From positions 1-59,887 of the forward strand of contig JAZLHA010000005.1 in NCBI GenBank assembly GCA_045616625.1: a stretch of 59,887 nucleotides of DNA, read 5' to 3'. The notes beneath the pieces were generated by a model that saw only the letters and a program-made list of their open reading frames with translations, was not told the origin of the DNA and did no database searches. This DNA comes from Candidatus Enterousia sp. Its GTDB lineage: Bacteria > Pseudomonadota > Alphaproteobacteria > Rs-D84. Positions 37,222 through 59,887 of the stretch are shown here, piece by piece. A program made the translations under genes and the position numbers. Numbering within the stretch: position 1 is the first letter of the stretch; each line of letters begins with the position of its first letter.

Positions 37222-38646
37222 TTAGAACAATTTAAACTTGTAATTTGTTCCAATACGGAAAGACGCTTTTGTGCCTTTGCCGAATCCAAAACCAACACCA
37301 GCATTAGCGGACCAGTTATCGGTAATACCCATAGCTGCACCCAATGCCATTGCTGATTTAGAGTTGTAGTTGCCGTAACCACCACCGACAGACATTTCGC
37401 CTTTCTTTACATTGGAAACTTCAACAGCGGATAAAGCAACAGAACTTGCGATACCAGCAGATAGGTTTTCATCTAAGTCGTTAACCTTAGAATCCAACGC
37501 AGCAATATCGTTACGGGTTGCATCAATTGCAGAACGTAATTTAGCATCTTCGGCTGCGCGTGTTTCTGCTTCACCTGCAATTTGCAAATCAGTATAAGAA
37601 TTTGCAGATACCAAAGTCATAGCGTCACCTGTATCAATAGCTGTTTTGATTGCACCACCTTCGCCTAAAGCAAGTTCTATTCTGCTATCTGCTTCGTTAT
37701 CAATAGTGTCTAAGATTGGCGCATTATATACATCTAGTGCAATATTTGATGATTCAAAGTCTCTATAGTCATTTTCAAAGGATTGTTTTGCATCAACTAA
37801 TGATTGCCATTTATCGTTCAGGTTGCCCAATGTGTTTTGATCTGTCGTATATACATTAAAGGCAGCTGATGCTATGTCTAGTTCTTCTGCAACTAAATCT
37901 CCTGTATGGTCTTTTGCGTTTTCTACCAAGGATACAGCATCGTTATAATAACCTTTTGCTTCTTCAAATAAAGAAACTAAATCGCCAGTAGGTGTAATTT
38001 GTTCATTTGTTCCTTTCTTGACTAAAATGATTTCACCATCTTGATCTTTCAATGAGTATTCTTGTCCGCTATTTGTTATAACAAACATATCCGGAATGAA
38101 CTCTTCTGCATCACCGTTTGTAGCAACAATAGAAGATTTTGTTACAGAAATAGCCTCATCATGTTCGTCTGGCAATAAATCTACTGTTTCTGTAAATTGA
38201 TTATTTGCAACAACACCTGTTCCTGCTTCATTTAATTTTAACTCAAATGTTTTTGCATCTTCACCTTCTCCAAGTATATATTGATAGTTTGATGCCTCCA
38301 TTTTCATACCAGCAATTAATTCAGTATTTTTTACACTAATACCATTTTCGTCTGGTTCAACTGTAGCAGAGCTTTCGCCTTTATAATCAGATTGAACTAT
38401 ATTATCTGTCCCTTCTGAATCCAAAGCGACTTCGTCACCATTTGGATTTGTATAATTGTAAGCAACATCAGATTTGGTTGGTTCTGCTATAGGAGAATTT
38501 ACATCACCTGTTTTTCCCGTTTCTTCTGTATCAGTTGCTCTTGAAAACTTACCAGCAAAAGTTACGTCTGTTGTTGCAGCACCTGCAGTGCCCATCATCA
38601 AGATAGATGCCATTGCACCACAGAAAACAATATTTTTTACTTTCAT
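37222..38646 (-). CDS. trimeric autotransporter adhesin (YadA-like anchor)
   Basis: Signal peptide, acidic passenger, coiled-coil stalk, C-terminal AGIASSVAL..SVGGGYGNY..ALGA..four beta strands ending in F. Confidence 0.9.
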   Translation of the reverse strand: MKVKNIVFCGAMASILMMGTAGAATTDVTFAGKFSRATDTEETGKTGDVNSPIAEPTKSDVAYNYTNPNGDEVALDSEGTDNIVQSDYKGESSATVEPDENGISVKNTELIAGMKMEASNYQYILGEGEDAKTFELKLNEAGTGVVANNQFTETVDLLPDEHDEAISVTKSSIVATNGDAEEFIPDMFVITNSGQEYSLKDQDGEIILVKKGTNEQITPTGDLVSLFEEAKGYYNDAVSLVENAKDHTGDLVAEELDIASAAFNVYTTDQNTLGNLNDKWQSLVDAKQSFENDYRDFESSNIALDVYNAPILDTIDNEADSRIELALGEGGAIKTAIDTGDAMTLVSANSYTDLQIAGEAETRAAEDAKLRSAIDATRNDIAALDSKVNDLDENLSAGIASSVALSAVEVSNVKKGEMSVGGGYGNYNSKSAMALGAAMGITDNWSANAGVGFGFGKGTKASFRIGTNYKFKLF

Positions 38647-38721
38647 TTTTTTCCCTTTTATTTTTGGTTAACCAAAGAAGGTTATGAAATTTCACATCCC
38701 TCTTGTTGAAACGAATGATAC

Positions 38722-38737
38722 AAAAACCTAGGTTTTT
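38722..38737. repeat. palindromic site A (AAAAACCTAGGTTTTT), candidate recombinase crossover site
   Basis: Seen directly; centre TA at 38729-38730. Confidence 0.65.
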
Positions 38738-38856
38738 TTTGTGCTCCCCTGCGGGCATTTTGAAAAAATTACAAAAAATCGTCGTAGTTCTTAGAAATCT
38801 GGGTAAAATAACAGGTTTTATAAAAAACAAAAAAAGTAAAAATATTGGTTGACATT

Positions 38857-38868
38857 AAACCTAGGTTT
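38857..38868. repeat. palindromic site B (AAACCTAGGTTT), candidate recombinase crossover site
   Basis: Seen directly; centre TA at 38862-38863; TTGACA at 38849-38854 just inside. Confidence 0.65.
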
Positions 38869-38899
38869 TTTATGCACCACCATAGAAAATATGAATTGC

Positions 38900-38928
38900 T
38901 TGAATTTAAAGGGTTTTTATGATATAAT
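38900..38928 (+). promoter_or_regulatory. sigma70 promoter of the invertase gene
   Basis: TTGAAT-17-TATAAT. Confidence 0.6.
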
Positions 38929-39022
38929 GACTTTTAAGAAAGGGGCATTTTTGTGCCTTTTTTATTTTTTCTAAATATAAAAAAATTACAAATTTTTTTA
39001 ACTATAATTAAGGAGATAAAGT

Positions 39023-39628
39023 ATGATTTATGGGTATTGTCGTGTATCAACAACACATCAACATGAAGAAAATCAGCACTTTGTTATAGAACAATTTGCG
39101 CATAAAAATGATATAAAAATAGATGTTTGGATAGAAGAAAAAATTTCAAGTAGTCGTAAATTATCAGAACGTAAATTGGGAGGATTATTAAAAAAATTGA
39201 AATCTGGTGATATTTTAATTACAACCGAAATATCGCGTTTAGGTCGCAGTTTATTAGAGGTTATGTCAATTTTGCAAACGTGTATGGAAAAGGGGTGTCA
39301 GGTCTGGACTTTAAAGGAAAATTTTAGATTGGGGTCTGATATTCAATCAAAAGTATTGGCTTTCGCATTTGGGCTAACTGCAGAATTATCCAAAGGTTTG
39401 CTCCAGGCACGCGTGCGTGAAAGTTTAGCACGTTTAAAAGCGGCTGGAATAAAACTCGGACGGCCACATGGTGCAAAATCAAAAAAATTAAAATTGGATA
39501 AAAACCGCGAAAAAATAAAAGTTATGCTTTCTTGTGGAATTAGCAGAAATCAAATTTGCAAAATAATGGATATAGATAAAAGAACTTTAAACTCTTTTAT
39601 TGAACGTGAAATAATAAAACGCAGATAA
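39023..39628 (+). CDS. serine recombinase, Mpi (master DNA invertase)-like
   Basis: MIYGYCRVST catalytic Ser, EISRLGRSL, RLGSDIQSKVLAFAFGL (Mpi-type segment), LGRP and C-terminal HTH. Confidence 0.9.
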   Translation: MIYGYCRVSTTHQHEENQHFVIEQFAHKNDIKIDVWIEEKISSSRKLSERKLGGLLKKLKSGDILITTEISRLGRSLLEVMSILQTCMEKGCQVWTLKENFRLGSDIQSKVLAFAFGLTAELSKGLLQARVRESLARLKAAGIKLGRPHGAKSKKLKLDKNREKIKVMLSCGISRNQICKIMDIDKRTLNSFIEREIIKRR

Positions 39629-39690
39629 AAAGTAAATTTGTTGATTTTTTAGCTCGTGTTCGCTATAATCATCTTATAAAGGAATATGAT

Positions 39691-39975
39691 ATGGCAACAG
39701 TGACAAGAAATGATTTTGCAAACCGTTTGCGTGAACGTTTTGGTTTGACTATGGCTGATGCATATAAATTAGTCGACCTTGTGTTTGCCGAAATTGGTGA
39801 GGCTTTAATCCGTGATGAAGAGGTTAAGTTCGCAGGACTTGGTACTTTTAAAATATTAACAAAATCTGCGCGTATTGGACGCAACCCAAAAACTGGCGCG
39901 CCTGCGGTAATTTCTGCACGTCGTGTGGCAACATTTCGCCCATCGGCTGAATTTCGTGCGCGCGTTGCTAAATGA
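39691..39975 (+). CDS. ihfA: IHF/HU family DNA-bending protein (IHF-alpha-like)
   Basis: GLGTF..RIGRNPKTG..ISARRVATFRPS. Confidence 0.85.
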   Translation: MATVTRNDFANRLRERFGLTMADAYKLVDLVFAEIGEALIRDEEVKFAGLGTFKILTKSARIGRNPKTGAPAVISARRVATFRPSAEFRARVAK

Positions 39976-59615: not shown

Positions 59616-59674
59616 AGAATAATATAAAACAACACCCATTTGGGTGTTTTTTTATGTCGCACTTACTCACCTTT

Positions 59675-59716
59675 GTCATTGCGAACGAAGTGAAGCAATC
59701 CAGTCATAATAATGAC
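59675..59716. repeat. RPE/REP-like repeat, left arm
   Basis: GTCATTGCGAACGAAGTGAAGCAATCCAGT...AATGAC; shares 20 nt with the window start. Confidence 0.6.
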
Positions 59717-59782
59717 AAAGAAGAGTAATTCAGGTATTTATTGCTTTAAATATAGTAAAATCAAATAATTATAATACCTAAC

Positions 59783-59887
59783 TGGTACATAAAAAACCTA
59801 GGTTTATGTCCATGATAAAAATTGACTTTTTTCACATTTTTCAAAATTCGTAATTTTATGCAGATTTGTGCGTCTTTGCACAATTTT
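59783..59887. repeat. second copy of the CCTAGG cassette (site C), truncated by window end
   Basis: TGGTACATAAAAAACCTAGGTTTATGTC matches the reverse complement of 38851-38879 (TGGTGCATAAAAAACCTAGGTTTAATGTC), with patchy similarity continuing to the end. Confidence 0.7.

Follow-up and report, generated by a model that had tools for sequence, protein, structure and literature searches.

A 59,887-nucleotide stretch of Candidatus Enterousia DNA (hereafter the window, which is contig C5 of the genome that we call G000; coordinates refer to the whole stretch) carries a 121-bp segment between the divergently oriented genes for a YadA-type adhesin and a small serine recombinase. We propose, with a probability of about 0.8, that this segment is an invertible split-promoter switch that is flipped by the adjacent Mpi-family recombinase and that drives the adhesin gene. 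The proposal draws on the anatomy of the locus, on its conservation, on the inversion of homologous segments between fixed flanks in related genomes, and on the fused promoter that is present in remnants that appear to be locked in one state. The features of the locus and of its surroundings are collected in Table 1.

Table 1. Positions of the predicted switch components and of neighboring features in the window
Feature	Position	Strand or state	Remarks
Adhesin open reading frame (ORF), 474 amino acids	37222-38646	minus	Signal-peptide-like N-terminus; C-terminal YadA-type anchor
Predicted fixed -10 half, TATCAT	38715-38720	minus	Outside site A, 3 nt from the 12-bp core
Putative crossover site A	38724-38735	none	Perfect 12-bp palindrome AAACCTAGGTTT; TA centre 38729/30
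Putative invertible segment, interior, 121 bp	38736-38856	assembled OFF	74-77% identical to the C1 and C7 segments
A-rich tract	38811-38848	plus	Directly upstream of the segment -35 box
Predicted mobile -35 half, TTGACA	38849-38854	plus	Inside segment, 2 nt from core B; faces away from the adhesin
Putative crossover site B	38857-38868	none	Identical 12-bp palindrome AAACCTAGGTTT; centre 38862/63
Recombinase leader	38900-38963	plus	Promoter-like box, then terminator-like hairpin and T-run
Small serine recombinase ORF, 201 amino acids	39023-39628	plus	Presumed invertase
IHF-alpha-like (HU/IHF-type) ORF, 94 amino acids	39691-39975	plus	Neighbor gene
Third copy of the 12-bp site	59794-59805	none	Apparent B-type end of another switch

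The centres of the two putative crossover sites are separated by 133 bp, and the sequence-only reading of this DNA had located both palindromes correctly. The same holds for the two hexamers it had singled out as promoter halves, namely the TTGACA inside the segment beside site B and the TATCAT outside site A, which faces the adhesin from approximately 62-70 nt upstream of its ATG. As judged from half-site frequencies, dyad conservation continues, more weakly, for about 4 nt beyond each side of the 12-mer, and thus the -35 and -10 hexamers lie at or just outside the edges of the recombinase sites. The A-rich tract that precedes the -35 box is probably a UP-element-like part of the mobile promoter half, and similar tracts are found ahead of the -35 box in orthologous segments and in those of two other Enterousia genomes (G075 and G148).

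When the segment is inverted virtually by a script, the adhesin-side junction becomes TTGACA-17 nt-TATCAT, compared to CACAAA-17-TATCAT in the present orientation, which reproduces the post-inversion promoter that had been predicted. With the segment as it now stands, a scan for consensus promoters identifies no promoter-like site on the minus strand from the adhesin ATG to site B, nor any alternative promoter for this gene. There is likewise no promoter-like pair within the segment on either strand, and therefore a complete promoter is not enclosed by the repeats. As assembled (OFF), the -35 box is directed, along with the A-rich tract, toward the recombinase gene, and TTGACA-16-TATGCA constitutes a very weak promoter-like pair.

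Of the 161 genomes of the genus, 119 (including this one) encode homologs of the recombinase, often as several paralogs. An orthologous set of 22 loci from relatives (L026-L047), whose recombinases are 67-80% identical, was compared with the window. At 14 of these loci, the region immediately upstream of the recombinase gene contains two intact AACCWWGGTT cores with a spacing of 96-111 bp, and the other eight carry one or no exact core. The start of a signal-peptide-like ORF is present on the far side in the 14 upstream regions that were inspected, and six of the 14 match the adhesin of the window by tblastn. The core centre is the asymmetric AA/TT in 10 of these 14 relatives' switches.

Comparisons among these loci reveal the inversion. 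The flanks of L028 and L029 align on one strand (91.2% identity over 2218 bp and 99.5% over 1284 bp), and the core-bounded 123 bp between them is 98.4% identical on the opposite strand. The central 124 bp of L028 is similarly inverted relative to L031, at 96.8% identity, and in the subgroup with TA cores 72 bp of L040 is inverted relative to L033 at 83% identity, again between co-linear flanks. The flipped orientation, for which related genomes had been suggested as the place to look, is thus present at the orthologous recombinase-adhesin locus.

We scored both junctions of 15 switches, which are the 14 relatives with two intact cores plus the window. For every one of the 15, the higher score goes to the junction at which the inside -35 box meets the outside -10 box. 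The -35 sequence of the favored junction is TTGACA, TTGACT or TTGATT, with the same placement in the 14 relatives' switches, and the -10 sequence is TACCAT, TATACT, TAGAAT or TATCAT, with a TA...T hexamer in the 14 relatives. The 16-17 nt spacer between the two boxes is the crossover site itself. As assembled, three switches (L028, L036 and L040) are ON and 12, including that of the window, are OFF. The split-promoter switch assembled in its OFF state that the sequence-only reading had envisioned is supported because orthologous and paralogous switches occur in both orientations and carry the predicted ON junction.

The window locus is one of several such arrangements in this genome (14 contigs, 813,990 bp, 38% G+C, 96% complete). 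The 12-mer AAACCTAGGTTT is present ten times on six contigs, compared to 0.09 copies expected from base composition and none for the reversed control pattern. Within the window there are three copies, compared to a mean of 0.23 for shuffled sequences, with three copies reached in 1 of 100 shuffles. Complete site pairs occur at C1:17714/17844, C5:38724/38857 and C7:266/397, with starts 130-133 bp apart, and single sites occur at C5:59794, C9:83, C13:87475 and C14:88066. All ten sites of this genome have the TA centre, and so none has an asymmetric 2-bp centre.

The segments of the complete pairs are related to each other (77.4% identity over 168 bp for C1 versus C5, and 74.1% over 162 bp for C5 versus C7), and the split layout is shared. 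At C1, TTGAAA is inside and TACACT is outside, with 18 nt between them after inversion. At C7, TGGACA is inside and TACACT is outside, with 17 nt between them. Thus a TA...T hexamer also occupies the -10 position in these two switches. A further CCTAGG (in ACAACCTAGGTTC) is found at C1:17866, 10 nt to the right of the C1 site B.

Sites are found within 280 bp of five contig ends, namely at the four single sites and at the C7 pair, which is located at the start of its contig. The end of C14 is the reverse complement of C7:279-418 (100% over 140 bp), and the end of C5 is the reverse complement of C9:1-261 (99.6%). These contig-end copies appear to be the ends of further switches with identical or near-identical segments, and the assembly breaks at these sites because the segments repeat. 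This includes the third copy in the window, which has the -35-bearing segment end on its right and where the contig stops 82 nt into the segment. We therefore count at least six switch loci in this genome. The sequence-only reading had described a single switch and overlooked this third copy and the other loci.

One single site differs from the others. At C13:87475 (C13:87446-87751), a segment is represented only by 29 bp from its -35 end, after which come the site, a -10 box and a second version of the C7 target gene, and there is no second site. We read this arrangement as a paralog that is locked ON. That it might instead be the C7 switch in its flipped state was considered and dismissed, given that only 29 bp of the segment is shared and that the gene copy differs from the C7 target flank at 4 of 277 positions.

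Other Enterousia genomes carry many more copies. Genome G148, with one recombinase homolog (75% identical), has 24 TA-core sites, all of which were retrieved. Its 11 site pairs include three that are ON (L121, L125 and L128) and eight that are OFF, and between L125 (ON) and L133 (OFF) the outer and gene flanks are of the same types and the segment is reversed. Locus L130 of this genome consists of an ON junction with approximately 55 bp of segment, a -10 box and a secreted-protein gene, with no second site, and it seems to be a second locked-ON remnant that is independent of C13:87475. Genome G075, from the same genus, has 67 sites and 25 reported pairs. Examination of 20 of these 25 yielded 18 OFF, one ON (L057) and one odd arrangement (L017). 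A suspicion that the C15 end of G075 is the flipped form of its C14 start was abandoned, as the outer flanks differ; an ON locus and a separate OFF locus are involved.

Across the genus, counts of AAACCWWGGTTT reach 11 or more in eight of the 161 genomes (11, 12, 15, 16, 25, 38, 50 and 69), each of approximately 0.9 Mb, and are four or fewer in the remainder. The maximum for the reversed control is eight. We considered whether expansion is linked to the TA centre. Nearly all sites of G148 are TA, but such sites are absent from G204 and G146 and number only two each in G188 and G141. Expansions use TA or other centres and therefore are not tied to the symmetric core.

The recombinase matches the Pfam Resolvase domain (E 2.4e-28, residues 2-142) and, weakly, HTH_7 and HTH_29 (residues 155-195). 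Its best relative of solved structure is the Gin invertase (E 5.8e-11), followed by the Tn3 and gamma-delta resolvases, and its Ser9 aligns with the position of the Gin catalytic serine. The earlier assignment as an Mpi-like invertase is supported by a match to NCBIfam NF009949, the master DNA invertase Mpi family (E 2.1e-76 and 256.1 bits by hmmscan), and the genome search with this model returns 255.6 bits, with the alignment covering 1-198 of 203 positions. This is the one small serine recombinase of the genome. A second match to PF00239, the resolvase domain, is located at C13:27353-27805 within a 545-amino-acid open frame that by its size is a large serine recombinase, and there is no switch site nearby. 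The three tyrosine recombinase genes of the genome reside on contigs without sites or approximately 65 kb from the nearest site.

From these data, we envision that the Mpi-family recombinase binds to both AAACCTAGGTTT sites. Serine recombinases cleave at a central dinucleotide, and therefore the enzyme would be expected to cut at the central TA and to flip the 121-bp segment. As assembled in the OFF state, the adhesin gene would have only its -10 box, TATCAT. Inversion would bring TTGACA and the A-rich tract to a position 17 nt upstream of TATCAT, with the recombination site serving as the spacer, and the completed sigma-70-type promoter would drive the adhesin. At least five other switches that share this core and precede genes for other secreted proteins are probably served by this enzyme as well, such that a cell population would vary its surface. 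We infer that the window copy flips, that the recombinase encoded beside it is responsible and can act on all ten sites, and that the ON orientation corresponds to transcription. It is also a matter for speculation whether bound recombinase might hinder RNA polymerase.

A number of considerations argue against this model. Promoter activity in either state is predicted from hexamers, and the 256-bit score of the recombinase falls below the curated equivalog cut-off of 272 for the Mpi family. Because the TA centre is self-complementary, the sites lack polarity, and deletion would be chemically possible as well. The 133-bp loop is very short, and no Fis-type protein was found (0 matches to PF02954, HTH_8, in this 96% complete genome). 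A search for helically phased A-tracts gave no peak near 10.5 bp and peaks at approximately 8-8.5 and 12 bp, against a shuffled control that is poor because shuffling destroys the tracts. Furthermore, the G075 assembly has no recombinase that is more than 60% identical to that of the window, and its two homologs are both located away from TA-core sites, so the link between enzyme and sites is not seen everywhere.

A further point against the model is that public sequencing data yielded no inverted junction of the window locus itself. Gut and horse metagenome runs contain parts of the window (the sampled-word share is 0.50 for run X1 and 0.40 for run X2), and in contigs from both of these runs the span covered is 38585-38953 or longer and is always in the OFF orientation. 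No inverted joint is present in the Logan contigs of four runs (X1, X2, X3 and X5), although contigs drop rare variants and therefore do not speak to the absence of the inverted form. A metagenome scan with the 28-nt adhesin-side junction returned 0 records, and one with the 20-nt sequence that includes the -35 box and core returned no copy of the locus and three unrelated contigs (L118-L120). The proposed ON/OFF switching is supported by the inversion in relatives, whereas the data for this genome itself consist of contigs that are all OFF.

It could be argued from these OFF-only contigs of four runs that the switch is a fossil: its ancestors flipped, the window copy has become locked, and the palindromes are at most operators for the recombinase or for some other protein. 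Degenerate second sites in relatives (at L026, L038 and L044-L047, at most one exact core is present) and the two locked remnants, C13:87475 and L130, would fit such a history. However, the two 12-bp cores are identical, perfect palindromes, the recombinase has an intact ORF that retains the catalytic serine, and ten identical cores have been kept genome-wide. A minority orientation would also be invisible in contigs, and we consider a fossil to be unlikely. Alternatively, the segment might flip with a different output, such as modulation of the recombinase gene or the placement of a terminator or an antisense element, with the adhesin transcribed from elsewhere. The orientation of the -35 box and A-rich tract toward the recombinase gene in the OFF state, with its very weak promoter-like pair, is what such a proposal can draw upon. 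This alternative is very improbable, given that the scan lists neither a promoter-like site in the segment nor another adhesin promoter, that the -35/-10 geometry is kept in 15 of 15 orthologous switches as well as in paralogs, and that the locked-ON remnants retain exactly the fused promoter.

The abundance of similar copies (10 sites here, 24 in G148 and 67 in G075) and the contig breaks that coincide with them could also be expected for a mobile repeat akin to a miniature inverted-repeat transposable element, whose palindromes would be terminal inverted repeats spread by transposition and whose position upstream of genes would be incidental. Yet no direct repeat resembling a target-site duplication was seen by eye beside the copies of G000 and G075 that were inspected, and there is no associated transposase. 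The distance to a -10 box and to a secreted-protein gene is fixed wherever the gene-side flank is assembled. Moreover, the interior changes orientation as both flanks stay in place, which indicates inversion rather than transposition, and we regard a mobile repeat as extremely improbable.

The gene that this switch is predicted to control encodes a protein with a YadA_anchor domain (PF03895, residues 414-471, E 4.1e-10, 40 bits with a cut-off of 22.7), which is an anchor of the trimeric-autotransporter class. Recognizable head or stalk repeats were not found, as the protein matches no further Pfam family at E values up to 0.01 and no NCBIfam family, and the passenger part is an orphan sequence. 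In contigs from three public runs, the match to the window covers the switch and approximately the first 20 codons of the adhesin and ends at 38585, beyond which the sequence differs, indicating that the passenger differs between populations while the switch is kept. The C1 target is a 320-amino-acid ORF and the C7 target ORF runs off the contig start, and both begin with signal-peptide-like sequences. In G075, the targets form a protein family of approximately 410-450 amino acids with a conserved signal-peptide-like start and variable bodies. Searches of the C1 target and of three G075 targets against Pfam returned 0 families.

Ahead of the recombinase ORF, the scan identifies a promoter-like box close to the consensus (38900-38928), TTGAAT-17-TATAAT with TG upstream, and within approximately 10 nt of this box, folding predicts the terminator-like hairpin and T-run (38938-38963). 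A similar promoter-like box with a hairpin and T-run is recognizable by eye upstream of orthologous genes in relatives. This hairpin may keep invertase expression low, or it may be a 5′ stabilizer. Downstream of the recombinase, the IHF-like ORF scores 98.4 bits against the NCBIfam model for IHF alpha, which is below the cut-off of 111, and two further HU/IHF-type matches exist in the genome. This neighbor had been put forward as a possible source of DNA bending for the switch. Synteny lends no support to this idea, because in the flanks that were retrieved, 0 of 29 recombinase loci of relatives carry such a gene within 1.5 kb. The IHF consensus is present in 7 of 33 segments, all of them from G075, and in 0 of the 3 segments of this genome. 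The gene is thus probably not a dedicated switch component, though its product might help.

Other repeats were encountered in the course of these searches. A dispersed repeat of approximately 40-100 bp at 59620-59720 adjoins the third site of the window; copies with 81-96% identity are present on C1, C2, C4, C9, C13 and C14, and a 28-bp piece is found at the very starts of C2 and C5. In the unrelated contigs L118-L120, the same 20 letters (TTGACA, two letters and the 12-bp palindrome) form the -35 box and spacer of a promoter-like site before a gene that looks MerR-like by eye, and there the palindrome probably acts as an operator inside a long spacer without any connection to the switch. A genome-collection scan for the paired pattern outside Enterousia found only tandem or direct repeats of other kinds, with off-target matches in records from Bacteroidales, Methylococcaceae, Collinsella, Lachnospiraceae and Olivibacter. 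Among these, several Bacteroidales metagenome-assembled genome (MAG) records (L076, L089, L093 and others) contain long tandem palindrome arrays with AACCTAGGTT at spacings of approximately 22 bp, at many loci of one MAG, and this is a different repeat.

Paralogous recombinases that are 56-60% identical (L048-L054) have no AACCWWGGTT core within 420 nt upstream. A different short inverted repeat can be discerned by eye upstream at four of these seven loci (L048-L050 and L052), and L050 and L052 match the adhesin and have a TTGATT box beside one arm of the repeat. At L053 no repeat of this kind is visible, and L051 and L054 are positioned at contig starts. These arrangements suggest that parallel, orthogonal switch systems exist within one genus.

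The crossover site is both the promoter spacer and centred on a self-complementary TA, and as a result all of the at least ten sites are chemically compatible with each other in either orientation. Beyond flipping each switch, one invertase might then swap promoter halves from one locus to another, remove or merge cassettes, and bind to assembled ON promoters and thereby repress them, a broader scheme that we put forward only tentatively and consider doubtful. At L017 of G075 (C8:16958-17088), both outer flanks are of the non-gene type, a layout as expected if non-partner sites had recombined, whether by deletion or by exchange between loci. The locked-ON remnants and the contig breaks at switches are further hints of such a scheme. 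If true, this 0.8-Mb genome would contain a genome-wide combinatorial network for surface variation.

Enterousia (order Rs-D84) are gut bacteria of farm animals with genomes that are mostly smaller than 1 Mb, according to the portion of the source that was available (PMC12306168), and NCBI places Candidatus Enterousia in the Alphaproteobacteria. The terms recombinase, invert-, phase varia-, adhesin and autotransporter do not occur in the text available from that article. Our literature search found no description of phase variation in Enterousia, although supplements of metagenome inverton surveys might list Rs-D84 or Enterousia loci. No promoter that is split by an inversion was found to be described either, which is not proof of absence.

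Invertible promoters are a classic route to surface variation in host-associated bacteria. The design proposed here would be a minimal one, in which a segment of 94-121 bp carries the -35 box and upstream half and in which the recombinase site is the promoter spacer, and it appears to have spread to many genes in an uncultured, barely characterized and genome-reduced gut lineage. Such a heavy investment in surface variation is in keeping with bacteria that live closely associated with a host or other cells. The locus would also represent a very compact natural module of recombinase plus switch with a clean OFF state. Finally, it raises the mechanistic question of how a serine invertase achieves synapsis of sites approximately 106-133 bp apart in an organism in which no Fis was found.

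Among known systems, the Hin/hix system of Salmonella and its relatives Gin, Cin and Pin likewise use a serine invertase of approximately 190-200 amino acids with a C-terminal helix-turn-helix, which acts at short dyads around a 2-bp centre. The hix and gix sites resemble the layout of A-tract, ACC, centre, GGT and T-tract. As described in the accessible part of PMC3798978, Hin needs a 65-bp enhancer that is bound by Fis, HU helps to form a loop of approximately 100 bp, and the enhancer-bound invertasome makes inversion the exclusive outcome. In contrast, the whole segment here is 121 bp, no Fis-type HTH_8 was found in the genome, and the TA centre is self-complementary. Hin also moves a complete promoter with its gene inside the segment, whereas here the gene is outside and half of a promoter would move.

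The mpl (P35) lipoprotein family of Mycoplasma penetrans offers a parallel at the level of the genome, in that each gene has its own small invertible promoter and is switched independently (PMC2268961, citing Horino et al., 2003, in the part of the article that we draw on). As in Mycoplasma penetrans, a reduced genome contains many surface genes, as with the paralogous secreted-protein families of G075. There, by contrast, the candidate recombinases are tyrosine (Xer-like) enzymes and the promoter is inverted as a unit (PMC2268961, same part).

In Bacteroides, a single global DNA invertase acts on inverted repeats that flank the promoter region, as stated in the available portion of PMC12632263. 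The parallel with Mpi of Bacteroides fragilis is that one small serine recombinase is paired with many dispersed, short invertible promoter regions ahead of surface-structure genes in a gut bacterium. As with Mpi, one such recombinase coexists here with a shared dispersed repeat (ten cores on six contigs) on which it is presumed to act. The host differs, in being an alphaproteobacterium with a 0.8-Mb genome, and so do the segments, which are 94-121 bp here and in relatives. Only the -35 box and upstream half would move here, with the crossover site as the spacer, unlike the whole promoter between repeats in Bacteroides (PMC12632263, same portion). The moving half promoter, the use of the crossover site as spacer and the very short segments set the proposed switch apart from both Mpi and mpl. 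On balance, our comparison points to Bacteroides Mpi as the closest functional match, and the logic of the genome as a whole resembles that of the Mycoplasma penetrans mpl family.

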